Shown: positions 31,886 to 61,678 of the stretch, in pieces
How the letters are laid out: the number at the start of each line of letters is the position of its first letter
How positions within the stretch are numbered: position 1 is the first letter of the stretch
Source of the DNA: Bacteroidales bacterium
GTDB lineage: Bacteria; Bacteroidota; Bacteroidia; Bacteroidales; UBA932
DNA length: 64,000 bases
Direction: 5' to 3'
Assembly: GCA_017546585.1 (NCBI GenBank)
Contig: JAFYWC010000098.1
Coordinates: 360 to 64,359, forward strand
The notes under the pieces: model-generated
Seen by the model: the letters and a program-made list of their open reading frames with translations, nothing else
Told to the model about the DNA's origin: nothing
Database searches by the model: none
Translations under genes and position numbers: made by a program

Positions 31886-32805
31886 TGATTATGAAGAAGT
31901 TAGCATATATCGCAGGAGCTCTTATGCTCCTTTTCCCTGCGCTCGCAGGTGCGCAGGCACTGCCGTTTGTTGCAGCTGAGAGCGACGCTGCAAGCCTTGG
32001 TATGGCAGGTGCAAACCTGACTCAGACCGGCTCTGTTGCGAATGCATCTTTCTATAATGCAGCTGTGATTCCGTTCTCGGAGTCTAAGATGGACTATGCC
32101 GCAGGCTACACTATGTGGCAGCCATCAGCAGCGTCAAGCAACATTCTCAATGTGGCTGGCGCATACAACCTCAATCAGAAGTTCGGTGTGGCTGTAGGAT
32201 TCCAGTACGGAATGAACCAGGCTTATGACATCACTGATGCAAGCGGTTCAGTGAAGGGTCAGTTCAAGCCTTCTGATATGCATATCAACGCAGGTTTCTC
32301 TTACAGATTCCTTCCGTACCTTTCTCTCGGTGCGAATGTAGGCTATGCTACCAGCAAGCTCGCTGAGGGTTATTCATATGGCGCTCTCGCAGCTGACGTG
32401 TTCGCAATGGCGAAGTTCGGCGGCGTGAAGGTTACTGCAGGTGTTGCAAACATCGGTACTTCAGTGACTTCAAAGAGCGGTGCGAAGTTCTGCCTTCCTG
32501 GCTCAGTAGCACTCGGCGCAGGTTATGAGGCTTCATTTGCGGATGTTCACTCTGTGGATGTGGCTCTTGATGCAGATTACTACTTCAGCGGCGGTTTTGC
32601 TGCGGCTCTCGGTGCGGCATATACATTCAATGACCTCGTTTCTGTGAAAGCAGGTTACCGTTACGGCGGCAAGTCTCCTGTAGGCTCCTTCGCATCGGTT
32701 GGCGTAGGCGCGAAGTTTATGGGCATCAAGCTTGATGTAGCATACCTCATCGGCTCAGGTGCATTGAAGAACACTTTGGCCCTTACATTGGGATACGCGT
32801 TCTAG
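31885..32805 (+). CDS. PorV/PorQ-like outer-membrane beta-barrel
   Basis: Signal peptide, ALPFV...DAASLGMAGA...ASFYNAA start typical of the PorV family, amphipathic strands, terminal LGYAF. Confidence 0.75.
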   Translation: MIMKKLAYIAGALMLLFPALAGAQALPFVAAESDAASLGMAGANLTQTGSVANASFYNAAVIPFSESKMDYAAGYTMWQPSAASSNILNVAGAYNLNQKFGVAVGFQYGMNQAYDITDASGSVKGQFKPSDMHINAGFSYRFLPYLSLGANVGYATSKLAEGYSYGALAADVFAMAKFGGVKVTAGVANIGTSVTSKSGAKFCLPGSVALGAGYEASFADVHSVDVALDADYYFSGGFAAALGAAYTFNDLVSVKAGYRYGGKSPVGSFASVGVGAKFMGIKLDVAYLIGSGALKNTLALTLGYAF

Positions 32806-32809
32806 GTCT

Positions 32810-32899
32810 AGCACGGAAAACACGTAAAAGCGTGGCAGATCCGACCTTCGAGGTGGGTATCTGCCACGCTTTCGTTATGTTTCCGTGGAAGATATTTCC
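32810..32899. repeat. REP-like palindromic element, dispersed copy 1
   Basis: Core AAAGCGTGGCAGAT-CCGACC-TTCGA-GGTGGGT-ATCTGCCACGCTTT shared with the copies at 56723, 57788 and 61569. Confidence 0.9.
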
Positions 32900-32977
32900 C
32901 GCCGACGATTTTTATTTGGCAGATTTTTTGGTTTGGCGTGACCAACGTCTGATAAAGAACATATTAAATCGTTGGTT

Positions 32978-53867: not shown

Positions 53868-54166
53868 TTTAAGTTAAACTTCATCTTCCCCACATCTTAT
53901 GCGCGCTTAGTAGGTTGAGGGCAAAGTAAATGAAAAGATTTTAAAGAAAAACCGCATCTGAACGCTTTCCAGTGCAATATTTTTCTCTTTTTTAAAATTA
54001 TTTCCGAATCTTTAAATCTTAAGATTTTTCTTTAACAGTTAAAGATTTTTTTTAATGTCCCGGGATTTTAAAAAAGAGAAAAACTTTGTTAAAGAAACAG
54101 AAAAATCTGCTTCCGGCTATTGCTGTTTTTCCCGCCAGGATTCATCTTTGAACAAAATTTGTGAAG

Positions 54167-54596: not shown

Positions 54597-56687
54597 ATGA
54601 AAAGGAAACTTCTTATCGCAGGCCTTGTGCTTGCAGTCATCAGCAGTTGCAAAATGGAAAATCCACTTTTGACGGAGTCAACCGCACCGTTCGGAGCTCC
54701 ACAGTTCGACAAGATCAAGAACGAGCACTATCTTCCTGCATTCGAGCAGGGTATTGCAGAGGCAAAGGCAGAGATCGATGCCATCGTTGCAAATGAAGCA
54801 GAGCCTACATTCGAGAATACAATCGAGGCTATGGAGTATGCAGGCCAGACTTTGAACAAGGTTGCCAGCATCTTCTACGCTGTGATGGAGGCTCATACTA
54901 ACGAGACTATGCAGGAGATCGCAGAGCAGATTTCACCTATGCTCACAGAGTACTCTATGTATGTGTCACTCAACACCGACCTTTTCCAGAGAGTGAAGGC
55001 TGTTTACGAGATGAAGGATGAGCTCGGTCTCGACAAGGACCAGATGACTCTCCTTGAGGACAACTACAAGGGATTCGTTCGTGGTGGTGCAAACCTTTCT
55101 GATGAGGACAAGGCTGTGTACAGCAAACTCTCAGAGGAACTCTCGCTCACTACTCTCCAGTTCAGCAAGAACGTTCTCGCAGCTACAAACGCGTACACTC
55201 TCCACATCGCTGATTCAGCTGACCTCGCAGGTCTTCCTGAGTATGTGAAGACTATGGGTGCCGAGACTGCAAAGGAGAAGGGCCTCGAGGGATGGGCATA
55301 CACTCTTGACTATCCAAGCTATGGACCGTTCCTCAAGTACAGCACTAACCGTGAGCTTCGCGAGCAGCTCTGGATGGCTTACAACACAAGAGCAATCGGC
55401 GGCGAGAATGACAACACTGAGATCGTCAAGAAGATCGTTGATCTCAGAATCAAGATTGCGAACATCCTCGGTTACGAGACTTACGCAGACTACGCTCTCG
55501 AGAACAGAATGGCTAAGGACAAGAAGACTGTAGATGAGTTCATTATGCAGCTTCTCGAGCCTTCTATGCCATACGCAAAGAAAGACGTTGCTGACGTATA
55601 TGCATACGCTAAGAAGAACGGTTTCGAGGACAGCAAGCTTATGCCTTGGGACTTCTCATACTGGTCAGAGAGATATCAGGAGGCAGAGTACTCGCTCAGC
55701 GCTGAGGAGCTCAAGCCTTACTTCCAGATCGAGAGCTGCATCGACGCAGTGTTCGGTCTCGCAACACGTCTCTATGGCATCACATTCGAGGAACTCAACA
55801 ATGTTCCTGTATATCACGAGGATGTGAAGGTATATGAGGTCAAGGACGTTGACGGAAGCCACCTCGCACTCTTCTATGCTGACTTCTTCCCACGCGCAAG
55901 CAAGAGAGGCGGCGCCTGGATGACTGACTTCCGTGGTCAGAGCGTAAGAAACGGTGTAGAGTACAGACCGTTCGTCACAATCGTATGCAACTTCACAAAG
56001 CCTACAGCTGACGCTCCGGCTCTCATCACTCACGATGAGCTCACTACATTCCTCCACGAGTTCGGTCACGCACTCCACGGAATCTTCGCAAAGGGACGTT
56101 ACCCGTCACTCACTGGTACAAGCGTATCTCGTGACTTCGTAGAGCTCCCTTCACAGATTATGGAGAACTGGGCCTTCGAGCCAGAGTACCTCAACTCATT
56201 CGCTAAGCACTACCAGACAGGTGAGCCTATCCCTGCTGAACTCATCGAGAAGATCGTTGCTGCAAAGAACTACCTCGCTGCTTACGGCCAGGTTCGCCAG
56301 CTTCACTTCGGTTACCTTGATATGGCTTGGCATTCACTCACAGAGGTCCCTGCAATCGGCACTGTAGAGTTCGAGCAGAACGTACTCGCTCCATATTCAG
56401 TTATGCCTGCTGCAGAGGGTGCTGCATTCTCATCATCATTCTCGCACATCTTCTCAGGCGGATACTCTGCAGGTTACTACTCATACAAGTGGGCAGAGGT
56501 TCTCGAGGCAGACGCATTCTCACTCTTCAAGGAGAAGGGCATCTTCAACCAGGAGGTTGCAGAGTCATTCCGCAGAAACATCCTTGAGATGGGTGGTGCA
56601 GAGGATGAGGCTGTGATCTATCGCAACTTCCGCGGCCACGATCCTCAGCCAGAGGCCCTTATGAAGAAACTCGGTCTTACAAAGTAA
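54597..56687 (+). CDS. dcp: M3-family metallopeptidase (peptidyl-dipeptidase Dcp), lipoprotein
   Basis: Lipobox ISSC; HEFGH, DFVELPSQ and GYSAGYYSYKW motifs; promoter TACCTTTG at 54549-54556. Confidence 0.95.
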   Translation: MKRKLLIAGLVLAVISSCKMENPLLTESTAPFGAPQFDKIKNEHYLPAFEQGIAEAKAEIDAIVANEAEPTFENTIEAMEYAGQTLNKVASIFYAVMEAHTNETMQEIAEQISPMLTEYSMYVSLNTDLFQRVKAVYEMKDELGLDKDQMTLLEDNYKGFVRGGANLSDEDKAVYSKLSEELSLTTLQFSKNVLAATNAYTLHIADSADLAGLPEYVKTMGAETAKEKGLEGWAYTLDYPSYGPFLKYSTNRELREQLWMAYNTRAIGGENDNTEIVKKIVDLRIKIANILGYETYADYALENRMAKDKKTVDEFIMQLLEPSMPYAKKDVADVYAYAKKNGFEDSKLMPWDFSYWSERYQEAEYSLSAEELKPYFQIESCIDAVFGLATRLYGITFEELNNVPVYHEDVKVYEVKDVDGSHLALFYADFFPRASKRGGAWMTDFRGQSVRNGVEYRPFVTIVCNFTKPTADAPALITHDELTTFLHEFGHALHGIFAKGRYPSLTGTSVSRDFVELPSQIMENWAFEPEYLNSFAKHYQTGEPIPAELIEKIVAAKNYLAAYGQVRQLHFGYLDMAWHSLTEVPAIGTVEFEQNVLAPYSVMPAAEGAAFSSSFSHIFSGGYSAGYYSYKWAEVLEADAFSLFKEKGIFNQEVAESFRRNILEMGGAEDEAVIYRNFRGHDPQPEALMKKLGLTK

Positions 56688-56692
56688 TATTG

Positions 56693-56724
56693 AAGACTCT
56701 TCGGTCCTCCGGAGAGTCTTTTTT
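56693..56724 (+). terminator. Intrinsic terminator of dcp
   Basis: AAGACTCTTCGG-TCCT-CCGGAGAGTCTT followed by TTTT. Confidence 0.8.
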
Positions 56725-56825
56725 GTAAACATCAAGCACGGAAACATATCAAAAGCGTGGCAGATCCGACCATTTAGGTGGGTATCTGCCACGCTTTCCC
56801 TATATATCCGTGCTCAACCTCCGCA
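56723..56825. repeat. REP-like element, left flank of the RAYT gene (103 bp)
   Basis: Differs from 57788-57890 at 5 of 103 positions; contains a 14-bp perfect stem with a conserved inner mismatch. Confidence 0.95.
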
Positions 56826-56932
56826 GTTAAAGAAAAAGAAATAATTTAAAGAAACAGAAAAACCTTTCTGCACCCTATTGCATTCATCCTTAGATGTTTC
56901 CAACTTTGAGACAGGTAAAAACAATTTAAGTT

Positions 56933-57793
56933 ATGAAACAGTACTATCACGTGAGCAGTAAGGCGTTGGAGAAGAATAATATTTTCCATTCGCGAGAGGA
57001 TTTTGTGACGGCGATGAACGATGTGGCGATATGTGTGTTGAGGTACGATGTGGTGATATTGTGCTTTTGCCTGATGAGTAATCACTTTCACTTTGTCCTC
57101 AAAGGGTCATATCAAGAGTGCTATGCCTTTATGAATGAGTTCAAGCGCATCTGTGCAATCCGTATGCGGGACAGGTGTGGGGAGGTCAATGGACTTAAAG
57201 ATGTTGATCTACGCTTTGATCTCCTGGATTCGCAGGAGTATCTGGAGAATGCGATTGCTTATGTCCTTCGCAACCCTCTTGCAGCGCGCATCATTATGAT
57301 GCCATATTTCTATGAGTGGTCGTCAGCTCTTGCATATTTTCGTGGGAAAGGAGAACTGCAAGGGATCCCCCTGAATAGCCTCAGTATCAGAAAACGCAGG
57401 GAAATACTTCGCACTCGTCACGATGTGGTCCCTGATAAATATGTGCTTTGTAACGGTGGCTTTGTGCACCCCGCAAGTTACATTGCCAGTGAAGAAGTCG
57501 AAAGCATTTTCAGACATCCCTCAAGGCTGATGATGGCGCTTGCGAAGAAAGTTGAAAATGAATTCGAAGTGGCGTCCGGAGCCGCTAATCAGATAGTGAT
57601 GCTTGACCCGGAGTTAAAGACTCACATCCTGGAACTGATACGTAATGAATTCGGGGTTGACTCACTCTCCCAGTTGTCTGCTGATGACAGATTGCGACTG
57701 TGCCTTTTGGTGCGACGTAACTTCAACGCGTCTGTGAAACAGATTTCCCGTGTTCTGAGACTCAGCCAGTCATTGGTGGCGTCAGTCTTGTAA
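56933..57793 (+). CDS. REP-associated tyrosine transposase (HUH Y1, TnpA-REP/RAYT) with a C-terminal HTH-like extension
   Basis: YYHV...FCLMSNHFH (HUH), AYVLRNP (catalytic Tyr) and YEWSS; flanked by palindromic repeats. Confidence 0.9.
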   Translation: MKQYYHVSSKALEKNNIFHSREDFVTAMNDVAICVLRYDVVILCFCLMSNHFHFVLKGSYQECYAFMNEFKRICAIRMRDRCGEVNGLKDVDLRFDLLDSQEYLENAIAYVLRNPLAARIIMMPYFYEWSSALAYFRGKGELQGIPLNSLSIRKRREILRTRHDVVPDKYVLCNGGFVHPASYIASEEVESIFRHPSRLMMALAKKVENEFEVASGAANQIVMLDPELKTHILELIRNEFGVDSLSQLSADDRLRLCLLVRRNFNASVKQISRVLRLSQSLVASVL

Positions 57794-57890
57794 ACATCAA
57801 GCACGAAAACATAACGAAAGCGTGGCAGATCCGACCATTTTGGTGGGTATCTGCCACGCTTTTCCTATATATCCGTGCTCAACCTCCGCA
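57788..57890. repeat. REP-like element, right flank of the RAYT gene (103 bp, direct orientation)
   Basis: See the left copy; the transposase stop codon lies inside this repeat. Confidence 0.95.
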
Positions 57891-57906
57891 CAACAGCAGG
57901 GGATGA

Positions 57907-59190
57907 TTATGCGATCTTCTGGTTGATGTCCTTTGGCGCCTTGAAGAGGATCATAAAGAGGAAGGCAACCACGAGAGCGTATGCTGCGAATACATACCAG
58001 GCAGCGCTCCAGTTCGGCTCAGCGGCATTGTAGACGAAGTGATTCACGATCGCCTGTGCGCTGAGTGTACCGATTGTTGCTCCGATACCGTTGGTCATAA
58101 GCATAAAGAGTCCCTGCGCACTGTTCTGGAGCTTCTCGCTTGTACGCATATTGGTGTAGAGTGCTCCTGAGATGTTGAAGAAGTCGAATGCGACTCCGTA
58201 CACGATCATAGAGAGGATGAGCATCCATACGCCTGTACCAGGGTTACCTGCACCGAAGAGACCGAAGCGGAGTACCCACGCGAACATTGCGATGAGCATA
58301 ACTCTCTTGATTCCGAAGAGTCTCATTGCAATAGGAATGAGGAGGATACCGAGTGTCTCTGAAACCTGTGAGATAGAGATGAGGGCGTTTGCATTACGTG
58401 CACCCCAGGTCTCGGCAAATGCAGGAACCTCCTTGAAGTGTGAGATGAATGGGTTCGCGAAGCCGTTTGTGATCTGAAGAGCTACTCCAAGAAGCATTGA
58501 GAAGATGAAGAAGATCGCCATCTGTCTGTCCTTGAAGAGTGAGAATGCATCGAGGCCGAAACGCTGTGCAAGTGTCTGATTCTCACCTGTCGACTGTCTG
58601 CAAGGGCAGTTAGGGAGAGTGAGGCAGTAAGCAAGCATTGCAAGTCCGAGGATGCCGGATACAAAGAACTGGTTGTATGAGTGCTGGTACTGTACGCCTG
58701 CACCGTTGGTCATAAAGTTCACGAAAAGCATTGCGCAGATGAAGCCGACTGTTCCGAATACGCGGATAGGCGGGAAGTCCTTCACCGTGTCGTAGCCGTT
58801 CTGCTCGAGGATGTTGAATGCAACTGCGTTAGAGAGCGCGATGGTAGGCATATAGAACGCCACGCTGAGAGCATAAAGGCTGAAGAGGATGCCGAAAGAC
58901 ACTTCTGTGCCGGCAGTCATTCCGTAGAAACCTGCGCTGACCATTGCGGCACCGGCGATTCCGTGGCAGATGCCGAGAAGCTTCTGGGCAGGGATGAACT
59001 TGTCAGCCACGATACCCATAAGGGTAGGCATAAAGATGGATACGATTCCCTGCATCGCGTAGAAGATACCGATTCTTGTGGCAAGTCCTACATTTGCGAG
59101 GTAGCTACCCATTGAAGTGAGGTAGGCACCCCATACAGCCCACTGGATGAGGTTCATCGCAATGAGTCTGGATTTGATGGATTTGTTCAT
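57907..59190 (-). CDS. nupG: MFS nucleoside:H+ symporter (NupG-like)
   Basis: SRLIAMNLIQWAVWGAYL, FPPIRVFGTVGF and GVAFDFFNISG motifs; promoter TATATTTG at 59278-59285 (minus). Confidence 0.88.
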   Translation of the reverse strand: MNKSIKSRLIAMNLIQWAVWGAYLTSMGSYLANVGLATRIGIFYAMQGIVSIFMPTLMGIVADKFIPAQKLLGICHGIAGAAMVSAGFYGMTAGTEVSFGILFSLYALSVAFYMPTIALSNAVAFNILEQNGYDTVKDFPPIRVFGTVGFICAMLFVNFMTNGAGVQYQHSYNQFFVSGILGLAMLAYCLTLPNCPCRQSTGENQTLAQRFGLDAFSLFKDRQMAIFFIFSMLLGVALQITNGFANPFISHFKEVPAFAETWGARNANALISISQVSETLGILLIPIAMRLFGIKRVMLIAMFAWVLRFGLFGAGNPGTGVWMLILSMIVYGVAFDFFNISGALYTNMRTSEKLQNSAQGLFMLMTNGIGATIGTLSAQAIVNHFVYNAAEPNWSAAWYVFAAYALVVAFLFMILFKAPKDINQKIA

Positions 59191-59333
59191 TGTTATTCTG
59201 TTTTAATATTATTTGTCGTGCATTCCCTTGCCCTGTCACATATGGCCGAGAAAGGGTCAGGATATCTATATAAACAACAAATATACAAGATTTTGACTAA
59301 AAGTTGTTATCTTTGAGGGTTAAAATCATTCGA

Positions 59334-60464
59334 ATGAAATTTGTAAAGACACACAATGACCCTCAGTCCGCTGCGAGATGCGGCGTGATCACTACAGACC
59401 ACGGACAGATCGAGACTCCTATCTTTATGCCTGTCGGCACAGTTGGCTCGGTCAAAGGTATATATCATAGAGACCTCAAGGAGGACATCAAGGCCGAGAT
59501 CATCCTCGGAAACACATATCACCTTTATCTTCGTCCGGGCCTCGATATCCTGAAGGCTGCGGGTGGTCTTCACAAGTTCGAGTCGTGGGACAGACCTATC
59601 CTCACAGACAGCGGCGGATTCCAGGTCTTCTCCCTCAGCCCTATCAGAAAGCTTACAGAGGACGGATGCGTCTTCCGTTCACACATTGACGGATCCAAGC
59701 ATCTGTTCACTCCCGAGAACAATATGGACACCCAGCGTATCATCGGAGCCGACATCGTGATGGCTTTCGACGAGTGCTGCCCGGGTGATGCTACATATGA
59801 ATATGCCAAGAAGTCATTGGCATTGACACAGAGATGGCTTGAGAGATGCTCTAAGCACTTCGATGCTACCGAGCCGCTCTACGGTTATTCACAGGCATTG
59901 TTCCCTATCATCCAGGGATGTGTGTATCCGGATCTGCGACGCGCTGCAGTGGATCACGCCGCTGCCCTCGACCGCGAAGGCTACGCCATCGGCGGTCTCG
60001 CTGTCGGCGAGCCTACAGAGAAGATGTACGAGATGCTTGAAGTAGTATGCCCTATCCTTCCGGAAGACAAGCCGCGCTACCTTATGGGTGTAGGTACACC
60101 TGCAAACATCCTCGAGGGTATCGCCAGAGGAGTGGATATGTTCGACTGCGTTATGCCGACAAGAAACGGCCGCAACGGAATGCTCTTCACCTGGGACGGT
60201 ATCATCAACATCAAGAACAAGAAGTGGGCTGACGATTTCTCGCCGCTCGATCCGAAGGGAACATCGTTTGTGGATCACACATATACAAGAGCATACCTCC
60301 GTCACCTCTTCGTGGCAGGAGAGATCTTCGCAGGTCAGATCGCCAGCGAACACAACCTCGCGTTCTATCTTGACCTTGTCAGGGAGGCTCGCAAGCACAT
60401 CAAGGCAGGCGACTTCAAGGCTTGGAAGGATGAGACCGTCAAGAGGATAACCACAAGACTTTAA
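59334..60464 (+). CDS. tgt: Queuine tRNA-ribosyltransferase
   Basis: ETPIFMPVGT, LTDSGGFQV, GVDMFDCVMPTRNGRNG; promoter TATCTTTG at 59308-59315. Confidence 0.98.
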   Translation: MKFVKTHNDPQSAARCGVITTDHGQIETPIFMPVGTVGSVKGIYHRDLKEDIKAEIILGNTYHLYLRPGLDILKAAGGLHKFESWDRPILTDSGGFQVFSLSPIRKLTEDGCVFRSHIDGSKHLFTPENNMDTQRIIGADIVMAFDECCPGDATYEYAKKSLALTQRWLERCSKHFDATEPLYGYSQALFPIIQGCVYPDLRRAAVDHAAALDREGYAIGGLAVGEPTEKMYEMLEVVCPILPEDKPRYLMGVGTPANILEGIARGVDMFDCVMPTRNGRNGMLFTWDGIINIKNKKWADDFSPLDPKGTSFVDHTYTRAYLRHLFVAGEIFAGQIASEHNLAFYLDLVREARKHIKAGDFKAWKDETVKRITTRL

Positions 60465-60469
60465 AGACT

Positions 60470-61561
60470 ATGGATCTTGCACCAAGAAAGATAGACCTGT
60501 ATATCACAAAGAAGTTTATGAGCACCTTCTTTGTGGCGTTGCTGCTTATCATCGGCATCGTCATCATCTTCGACATCAGTGAGAAGATCGATGACTTCGT
60601 GTCGAAGGAGGCACCGCTCAAGGCTGTCATATTCGATTACTACGTGAACTTCATTCCGTACTTCATCAATATGTTCAGCCCTCTGTTCGTATTCATCACG
60701 GTCATATTCTTCACATCAAAGATGGCTGCCGACTCGGAGATCATCGCCATACTTTCCGGAGGTGTAAGCTTCCACAGGATGATGGTCCCGTATGTGTTCT
60801 CAGCTACTGTCATCGCACTTCTTTCACTGTGGCTGAACCTTTTCGTCATCCCTGACGCCAACAAGACGCGACTGGAATTCGAAAGCCAATATATAAAGAA
60901 CAGGTATAAGAGTGTCGGTAGAAACGTACACTACCAGACTTCGCCAGGTGAGTTCGTATATGCGGAGTCGTTCAGTTCGTGGAACAACACTGCCTACAGA
61001 TTCACCATCGAAAGGATCGAGGACAATCAGCTCGTTTCGAAGATCTCTGCAGAGACAGCTGTTTATGATACATTGAAGGGCACCTGGAGACTCAAGAAGT
61101 ACTTCATCAGAGACTACAACGCTGACCTGACAGACAACATTAGGAGCGGAAGGCAGATAGACACGACTCTCGCATTGTCCGTCAAGGACTTCTACCTGAC
61201 TGAGAAGACAGTGGAGACACTCAACTTCCAGGAACTCAATGATCTGATCGAAACACAGAGAATGCGTGGAGATGCAAACGTGAAGTTCGCCCTCATCGAG
61301 AAGAATACTCGATTTGCGCTTCCGTTCTCGGCATTCATCCTTACGATTATGGGTGTGGCGCTGTCATCAAAGAAGCGCCGTGGAGGTATCGGATGGAACA
61401 TCGGTATCGGTATCGGACTGGCGTTCACCTACATCCTCTTCCTCCGTTTCAGCCAGATGTTCGTGCATACCGGAGTGCTGCCTCCGTTCATCGCCCTTTG
61501 GCTCCCGAACATCATCTTCGCCCTCATCGCCGGTGTCCTTTACCGCATCGCGCCGAAATAG
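60470..61561 (+). CDS. LptF/LptG-family LPS export permease
   Basis: KIDLYITKKF...SEIIAILSGGVSFHR; three TM - periplasmic domain - three TM layout. Confidence 0.92.
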   Translation: MDLAPRKIDLYITKKFMSTFFVALLLIIGIVIIFDISEKIDDFVSKEAPLKAVIFDYYVNFIPYFINMFSPLFVFITVIFFTSKMAADSEIIAILSGGVSFHRMMVPYVFSATVIALLSLWLNLFVIPDANKTRLEFESQYIKNRYKSVGRNVHYQTSPGEFVYAESFSSWNNTAYRFTIERIEDNQLVSKISAETAVYDTLKGTWRLKKYFIRDYNADLTDNIRSGRQIDTTLALSVKDFYLTEKTVETLNFQELNDLIETQRMRGDANVKFALIEKNTRFALPFSAFILTIMGVALSSKKRRGGIGWNIGIGIGLAFTYILFLRFSQMFVHTGVLPPFIALWLPNIIFALIAGVLYRIAPK

Positions 61562-61568
61562 CACTTTG

Positions 61569-61668
61569 TGTGGAAGATATCTTCCACAGTTATATAGGAA
61601 AAGCGTGGCAGATACCCACCTCGAAGGTTGGATCTGCCACGCTTTCGCTATGTTTTCGTGCTTGATGT
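61569..61668. repeat. REP-like element, dispersed copy 4 (inverted relative to the others)
   Basis: AAAGCGTGGCAGAT-ACCCACC-TCGAA-GGTTGG-ATCTGCCACGCTTT between convergent lptF/G and ilvE. Confidence 0.92.
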
Positions 61669-61678
61669 CAGCAGGAAA

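Follow-up and report, generated by a model that had tools for sequence, protein, structure and literature searches.

A RAYT-like gene between two REPIN-like hairpins at the dcp-nupG site of Candidatus Cryptobacteroides, a probable low-copy enzyme-plus-repeat system

The window analyzed in this study is a 64,000-nucleotide (nt) stretch of a Bacteroidales bacterium (assembly GCA_017546585.1, contig JAFYWC010000098.1, positions 360 to 64,359), whose genome (2.49 Mb, 163 contigs) is referred to below as the source genome, G000. Between a dcp-like and a nupG-like gene, it carries a gene for a Y1 HUH nuclease resembling the REP-associated tyrosine transposases (RAYTs; REP, repetitive extragenic palindrome), which is bracketed by two directly repeated hairpins similar to REPINs (REP doublets forming hairpins). 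The unit is probably a REPtron/TIRtron-type enzyme-plus-repeat system of Candidatus Cryptobacteroides and appears to be a low-copy form of this known kind of system, in which the enzyme would cut the hairpin. Newly seen were an allele series at one site (bracket, one hairpin, and none), concerted evolution of the hairpins, incongruence between the cassette and its flanks, and a hairpin-bounded inversion. The parts of the unit are listed below with their positions in the window or in the protein.

56723..56825, plus strand: left REPIN-like hairpin repeat, with four ~10-nt boxes and the asymmetric apex CCGACC-loop-GGTGGGT
56933..57793, plus strand: RAYT-like Y1 HUH nuclease gene, an intact open reading frame of 286 amino acids (aa) with TAA at 57791-57793
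57788..57890, plus strand: right hairpin repeat, 95% identical to the left one, its 5' edge being the last codon and the stop of the gene
Residues 1-~150: catalytic core of the RAYT-like protein (H51, H53, Y110, and Y127-W-S-S)
Residues ~225-286: compact four-helix tail resembling a helix-turn-helix (HTH) unit

The first-pass annotation of the window had described an intact HUH/Tyr gene lying between two 103-bp repeats of the same orientation, with the stop codon inside the right one, and all of this was re-read in the sequence. The left and right copies are 103-nt direct repeats with 5 mismatches, and a repeat search extends them to 110 nt at 93% identity. As single-stranded DNA, each repeat forms a long imperfect hairpin on either strand, with energies of -25 to -28.5 kcal/mol and folding z values of -6 to -8.7 (0 of 200 shuffles fold as well). 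The four boxes of ~10 nt in each repeat, ATCnnnCACG / CGTGnnnGAT, alternate in orientation (a-a'-a-a'). In total, 32 copies from the source and related genomes could be aligned over ~103 nt, and the asymmetric mismatch CCGACC/GGTGGGT between the inner boxes, already noted at first pass as conserved, is present in both window copies and kept in most of the 32. When the alignment was read as a single long hairpin, 87% of the cells paired and 17 of the 34 pairs were changed on both sides; none of 500 shuffles matched the paired fraction of the long stem, its both-sided changes, or its covariation score, and slid controls paired at 34-46%. An arm-local fold with two small hairpins was also tried and rejected, as it pairs through box conservation without covariation and is reached by 119 of the 500 shuffles.

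REPINs are ~100-nt doublets of inverted REP units forming one hairpin (PMC3116915, PMC3337134). Judged by its sequence, the repeat fits the description of a REPIN-like doublet, composed of two inverted units of boxes plus spacer. With two inverted sub-units in one long stem, a length of ~100 nt falls within the known range, and the repeat is not unusually long as had been thought. The hairpins are 57-83% identical between genomes, whereas the fourfold degenerate sites of the adjacent gene are 21-36% identical, which equals random expectation and indicates that the hairpin sequence is under selection. Ahead of the stem, both window copies have the reported GGAG on the minus strand, but orthologous elements in other genomes do not keep it, and it was ruled out as a REP tag. 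Better conserved than GGAG is TGTAA/TGTAG on the plus strand at the 5' foot, but it coincides with stop codons; of the 32 copies, about half (17 by eye) have GTAA/GTAG, again at stop codons. A search of the hairpin against Rfam yielded a sub-threshold chance match to a microRNA family and nothing else. In some solo copies, the ~18-nt apex is inverted in place, with the arms colinear, as seen in the following loci.

L075:7232-7334 versus L086:101-203: copies with the apex in opposite orientations
L083:199-301: a further copy of this kind

The HUH motif of the protein is S-N-H51-F-H53-F-V, and the catalytic tyrosine motif is A-I-A-Y110-V-L-R-N114-P; H51, H53, Y110, and N114 are invariant in an alignment of 27 sequences. 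Published tables give the signatures NHxH / YxxxNP / SS for class-2 TnpA-Y1 enzymes (RAYTs) and DH[VI]H / Y[IV]ENQ for class-1 IS200 enzymes (PMC6006769). The 286-aa protein has both the [ND]HxH-type HuH motif and the Y-x-x-x-N-P motif expected of class 2 (NHFH, YVLRNP, and YEWSS). The NCBIfam IS200 model NF033573 did not match it and matched two of the ten paralogs of the source genome, at 5e-4, whereas the NCBIfam RAYT equivalog NF047646 matched 9 of the 10 (best 1.6e-12), all below its cut-off. A sequence search of the PDB with the family profile gave weak matches only (ISDra2 at 0.008 and 4er8 at 0.24), and a fold search was therefore needed. An AlphaFold2 model was built from the 27-sequence alignment, with a mean predicted local distance difference test (pLDDT) value of 86.5, and its top Foldseek match was E. 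coli TnpA-REP on a REP hairpin, 4er8 (E 6.2e-4, target TM-score (TMt) 0.64, 151 columns). The IS200, IS608, and ISDra2 TnpAs ranked after it, with E values of 5e-3 or worse, TMt of ~0.5, and ~118 columns. Thus, the modelled fold is closer to TnpA-REP than to the IS200/IS605 TnpAs. These data support the assignment of the protein as a divergent class-2 Y1 HUH nuclease, RAYT-like and not IS200-like, as the first-pass annotation had it; the classification is built on motifs, profiles, fold, and single-copy divergent paralogs. The non-synonymous divergence (dN) from orthologs was 0.14-0.31, with the silent sites saturated, so that fourfold-site identities were used in place of a dN/dS value. This indicates strong purifying selection on the gene, with the catalytic residues intact.

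The last ~60 residues were modelled as a confident four-helix unit (pLDDT ~90). The structure search with this tail returned weak HTH-type matches only (WhiA, sigma region 4, and DnaA domain IV, all with E > 0.3), and neither the structural nor the Pfam search gave a significant match. In Pfam at E<=1, there were only weak matches to HTH_24 and HTH_36, each in a single paralog, and Bac_DnaA_C, HTH_23, and HTH_28 were not detected in the tail. As the structural matches are weak, the tail is called HTH-like and nothing beyond that.

The ten paralogs of the source genome have lengths of 283-314 aa and are 20-53% identical; near-identical duplicates are absent among them, a low copy number typical of RAYTs. 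All ten retain H51/H53 (xNHxH), Tyr110 in AIAYxLRNP, and Y127 of YxWSS, the YxWSS motif itself being kept only in part. The end of the tail reads ...AS.KQI.R.L.L, with Q270 as the sole invariant residue there. Most paralogs are bracketed by their own structured direct repeats of 100-130 nt, whose box sequence differs each time. The bracketed paralogs are located on the following contigs of the source genome (C numbers).

C82:1594-2526
C133:24598-25515
C115:84078-85010
C59:38246-39172
C124:39709-40560
C62:43257-44114

The repeats of the C115 paralog have the same four-box a-a'-a-a' order, and those of the closest paralog (C62, 53%) have an identical hairpin geometry and a different stem sequence. 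An own box set for each paralog fits co-evolution of enzyme and repeat. In a metagenome library, the family comprised 744 clusters at 50% identity (E<=1e-30), most of them unannotated. Of 24 genomes sampled from the genus, 19 have full-length members, as does one more genus genome (G081); in 200 genomes spread across Bacteroidales, no full-length match was obtained outside this genus. A Candidatus Cryptobacteroides genome can carry as many as 11 paralogs, and the genomes recorded under this name come from the guts of ruminants and other animals. None of the plasmid and phage records searched carries the gene.

Counting copies genome-wide, which had been proposed at first pass, revealed two flanking and about six solo hairpins in the source genome, ~8 in all. 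Two of the solo copies lie in the window.

32798..32900, plus strand: solo hairpin in the intergenic gap after the 3' end of a gene
61572..61674, minus strand: solo hairpin between convergent genes, inverted relative to the right copy

Further solo copies were found on contigs C64, C82, and C80 and weaker ones on C62, C23, and C90. All solo copies occupy tight intergenic gaps at gene 3' ends, several of them between convergent genes, and they probably serve as bidirectional terminators. According to BLAST, the hairpin family occurs in only 3 of 61 genus genomes, G000, G063 (two flanking copies only), and G047 (one solo, orphan copy). An exact-core scan of 185,579 species genomes yielded 12 loci in about 8 Cryptobacteroides/Bacteroidales bins, with 1-4 copies and never more than four in each other genome found; it included orphan hairpins in G077-G079, which were outside the 61-genome BLAST sample. 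Such counts are not those of a proliferated REP family. The first-pass idea of a Bacteroidales REP/RAYT system is partly supported, by the motifs, the profiles, the fold, and a selected cognate repeat.

The positions of the solo copies bear on another explanation, in which the hairpins are chiefly host structures (bidirectional terminators or mRNA stabilizers), the gene is domesticated or an idle passenger, and the rearrangements are due to ordinary homologous recombination. It would account for all solo copies lying at 3' ends of genes or in gaps between convergent ones and for the other, unrelated long hairpins that 'empty' sites in relatives hold at the same position; moreover, 103-bp repeats with 95-100% identity are adequate RecA substrates. 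However, a terminator needs neither a cross-species conservation of 57-83% where silent sites are saturated nor a conserved asymmetric apex and four conserved boxes, and the hairpin family was confined, in the 61 genus genomes, to those with the cognate gene (G000 and G063) and the one G047 orphan. A different flanking repeat for each of the 10 paralogs and a gene under strong purifying selection also argue against this explanation, which we regard as very improbable.

The complete bracket (hairpin-promoter-gene-hairpin, the right copy including the stop codon) was found at the dcp-nupG site in G063 (79% protein identity), in metagenome relatives (81%, 76%, and 64%), and in three further bins. 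Two-sided 103-nt hairpins are present in the source element and in 9 more elements of the clade, 7 of those at dcp-nupG, and the protein of one relative was recovered on 23 contigs from many samples, at the dcp-nupG site every time. The first-pass annotation had suggested that the gene could leave as a unit through its direct repeats and that a dcp-nupG site with one repeat should be sought in relatives. Such a site, in which one hairpin stands between the dcp stop and the nupG stop, was found in two sister species.

G077, JAZRLI010000030.1: one-hairpin allele
G079, JAGBVR010000014.1: one-hairpin allele

The cognate gene was not found in the G077 and G079 assemblies, where the best matches were 53% and 32% identical, respectively, so the direct-repeat layout appears to let the gene be lost as a unit. 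In the dcp tree, both species nest among bracket-bearing ones, which makes loss of the gene between the direct repeats the simpler reading of these sequences; a landing pad that precedes insertion is a possible alternative. The two alleles differ by a flipped ~18-nt apex with colinear arms. At the dcp-nupG site of G002, G075, and G013, the hairpin family is absent and unrelated long hairpins are present instead.

In species without the hairpin family, the same gaps between convergent genes hold unrelated perfect or near-perfect palindromes of 50-130 nt.

L014:2100-2200
L018:2100-2200
L021:2100-2200
L019:2100-2230
L064:3810-4010

Several of them share ATCCCC(C)G...C(G)GGGGAT feet. Their sequences suggest that different hairpin families turn over at fixed 3' intergenic positions. 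In G060 (L066:327-1115), an exonuclease III-like gene is situated between dcp and a 66%-identical RAYT homolog, which is preceded by a different hairpin with an 18-bp stem; the dcp neighborhood has thus been rebuilt more than once.

Within an element, the left and right hairpins are 87-100% identical, compared with 57-83% between genomes, and the copies cluster by genome and not by side, which reveals concerted evolution. Homologs with 72% identity have the same bracket at two other loci, glmM-S8 protease and folD-tolC. Ahead of the RAYT gene, the bracket of this 72% clade also includes a gene with an ORF6N domain (KilA-N-like, DNA-binding).

L071:1956-2498: ORF6N passenger, full-length, 180 aa
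L050:3305-3526: ORF6N passenger, shortened, 73 aa

Among L078, L081, and G063 (L016), identity at fourfold sites was 70-79% for the RAYT gene versus 48-60% for dcp; between the window and these three, it was 30-37% for the RAYT gene although dcp showed 51-54%. The history of the cassette is therefore unlike that of its flanks, at the same site. To the right of the gene, a segment lies between inverted hairpins, namely the right copy and the solo copy at 61572..61674.

57794..61668: 3.8-kb segment with nupG, tgt, and lptF/G-like genes

This segment is inverted in G080 (L085), with the breakpoints within the hairpins; in L078, whose locus extends to window position 60235, it is colinear up to there. 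A mosaic was observed in L081 (JBGVNX010000036.1, 3347-7857): its dcp is nearest to those of L078 and L085, its RAYT is 98.6% identical to that of L085, and its nupG is 99.1% identical to that of G063, the switch being at the right hairpin. It is due either to recombination at the hairpin or to a chimeric metagenome contig.

Several of these features could also be expected from a low-activity insertion sequence (IS) of the IS200/IS605 type, with the hairpins as its ends, the solo copies as derivatives resembling miniature inverted-repeat transposable elements (MITEs) or as remnants, and whole-element, peel-and-paste single-strand transposition. The whole bracket with its promoter, and even with the ORF6N passenger, is present at at least three unrelated loci, the cassette and its flanks have incongruent histories, the hairpins at both ends share their orientation as in IS608, and the Pfam match of the protein is to Y1_Tnp, 'Transposase IS200 like'. 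However, no genome has two near-identical copies, the paralogs being only 20-53% identical, and the motifs are NHxH / YxxxNP / WSS and not DH[VI]H / Y[IV]ENQ. The NCBIfam IS200 model did not match this protein, and 4er8 is the closer structural match. Instead of a distinct left end (LE) and right end (RE), there are two identical 103-nt units, the same site is occupied across protein identities from 64% to 100%, and plasmid or phage copies were searched for and none was found. Taken together, these differences make an IS unlikely.

As an enzyme-plus-repeat system, the unit might operate as follows. The protein would recognize the folded hairpin on single-stranded DNA and nick it at a fixed place near its foot. 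Given identical direct copies, either cutting and rejoining at equivalent points or homologous recombination could remove the gene together with one hairpin, and the other hairpin would stay behind. Running in reverse, the reaction would place the cassette at a resident hairpin, and on occasion the hairpin might be copied alone, which would give rise to the few solo copies. A bolder version is a self-mobilizing, hairpin-bounded cassette, in which cuts made by the HUH enzyme at one equivalent point of each direct hairpin would free a circle of the gene plus one hairpin, able to re-enter at any resident hairpin copy, including those in other species; the cutting is likened, by analogy, to that of a rolling-circle initiator at its origin. 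This version is decidedly doubtful. If true, it would account for the fixed dcp-nupG site with incongruent cassettes, the one-hairpin alleles, and the left-right identity, and the RAYT would still be moving itself via site-specific recombination from hairpin to hairpin, with a function more like that of an integron cassette than that of an IS or a REPIN system.

A number of observations weigh against the assignment to an enzyme-plus-repeat system. The protein scores 20.3 bits with Pfam Y1_Tnp, under the cut-off of 23, and 30.8 bits (E 2.3e-7) with NF047646, under the 80-bit cut-off. The copy number of the hairpin is far under that of classical REP/REPIN populations (tens to hundreds), and the left-right identity of the repeats around the other paralogs is just 71-86%. 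RecA-type recombination between ~100-bp repeats would suffice to explain the loss to one hairpin, the left-right homogenization, the cassette exchange, and the inversion, with no part played by the protein. A metagenome scan for a one-hairpin allele of the L044 type, the commonest relative, gave 0 matches, a weak negative as the scan lacked a positive-control denominator. Finally, the comparison genomes are mostly metagenome bins, whose contigs can be chimeric at repeats.

The immediate neighborhood of the unit and its putative promoter elements are as follows.

54597-56687, plus strand: M3 oligopeptidase gene, dcp-like, stop at 56685-56687
56690..56725, plus strand: GC-rich short hairpin and T-run right after the dcp stop, read from the sequence
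56826..56866, plus strand: A-rich tandem motif, TTAAAGAAAAAGAAA x2, directly after the left repeat
56901..56908, plus strand: near-match to the -7 promoter box, CAACTTTG, 25 nt upstream of the ATG
57907-59190, minus strand: nucleoside:H+ symporter gene, nupG-like

The hairpin with the T-run is likely the intrinsic terminator of dcp, outside the repeat; it is missing in G063, in which the dcp stop borders directly on the repeat. The box CAACTTTG approximates the Bacteroidetes -7 box TAnnTTTG, and the same layout was found in the orthologous elements L044 and L050. With this near-consensus box after the left repeat, the RAYT-like gene appears to own an ordinary promoter. The A-rich motif (TTAAAGAAAAAGAAA, a spacer, and TTAAAGAAAAAGAAAAA) occurs more than 12 times in the genome, before a different gene in each case, and lies 35-55 nt ahead of a TAnnTTTG-like -7 box where such a box is visible. 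Copies in the source genome include the following.

C24:9363
C110:8966
C154:4297
C133:25577
C64:1465
C120:31919
C139:3254
C115:21929
C62:43105
Window, ~54068-54108

This recurrence before many unrelated genes ruled out the 37-nt A-rich stretch as a paralog-specific leader. In Cryptobacteroides, the motif appears to be a genome-wide promoter element of the UP-like kind.

The REPtron is said to pair the E. coli TnpA-REP (RAYT, 4er8) with REPs and bacterial interspersed mosaic elements (REP/BIME), in work reportedly by Nunvar (2010), Ton-Hoang (2012), and Messing (2012). Like it and the REPIN-RAYT systems, the present unit has a Y1 HUH nuclease with NHxH/YxxxNP-type signatures and 4er8 as the best structural match. 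It also shares with them a single-copy gene flanked by cognate imperfect palindromes, an inverted sub-unit doublet folding into one ~100-nt hairpin, solo copies that are extragenic at gene 3' ends, and several divergent paralogs per genome, each with its own repeat. In contrast to these systems, the protein has an additional ~120 aa, which include a middle region and the HTH-like tail, the W[EQ] motif is replaced (L-G/K-E/D), and the score does not reach the curated RAYT cut-off. The repeat numbers fewer than 10 copies, where tens to hundreds are usual, both flanking copies are complete and in direct orientation, with the right one holding the stop codon, and no clearly conserved GTAG is seen. 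REPIN-RAYT systems, known from Pseudomonas (PMC3116915), are described as vertically inherited, whereas this cassette shows signs of exchange between species.

RAYT-like genes with C-terminal HTH tails have already been described as the TIRYTs of TIRtrons (TIR, terminal inverted repeat; Di Nocera 2013, PMC3733652), which correspond to TnpA-Y1 subclass 2.1 and Bertels group 1 (Quentin 2018, PMC6006769; PMC5581495). The likeness includes a long RAYT-like protein whose HuH motif is NH[YF]H and whose Tyr is followed by an SS motif, with a C-terminal domain that is of the HTH type there and at most HTH-like here, as well as small families of flanking repeats that may be wholly self-complementary or doubly palindromic; among RAYT groups, this subclass also has the most IS-like behavior. 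It differs in the Bac_DnaA_C, HTH_23, and HTH_28 domains, which were undetected in the tail here, and no GGGGWSAS TIR motif could be made out in the flanking repeats as read, no motif search having been made. Subclass 2.1 is reported as mostly proteobacterial and without nearby REP-like structures, unlike this unit, and the full-length family occurs here in one Bacteroidales genus only, among 200 genomes of the order. Bacteroidetes RAYTs flanked by 'atypical secondary structures' have likewise been described, as TnpA-Y1 subclass 2.6 (Bertels group 5; PMC6006769). They belong to the same phylum and have an NH[LIV]H-type HuH, an SS motif, and flanking structures with copies elsewhere in the genome; their median length is 179 aa, with no large C-terminal domain and with the Y motif YIH[QN]NP, a comparison made by description only. 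With IS200/IS605 elements (IS608 and ISDra2), the unit has in common the HUH/Y1 fold, end hairpins of the same orientation, and possible whole-unit movement; it differs from them in its motif signatures, in the absence of multiple identical copies, in its ends being identical 103-nt units, and in staying at one site over long periods.

Proteobacteria have been nearly the sole setting of RAYT/REP study, and there the enzyme is thought to have stopped moving itself, with only the repeats spreading. Since they score under the Pfam and NCBIfam thresholds, the ~290-aa proteins of the present family are mostly unnamed or annotated as 'hypothetical protein'. Their genus-specific expansion shows a possible intermediate state, in which the gene is still within complete repeats, and the bracket has been lost to one hairpin, exchanged between species, and has seeded a few solo copies. 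The solo copies already reshape the chromosome, as in the one 3.8-kb inversion, and occupy terminator positions. The natural alleles with the bracket, one hairpin, or none offer a direct handle on whether a RAYT mobilizes itself.

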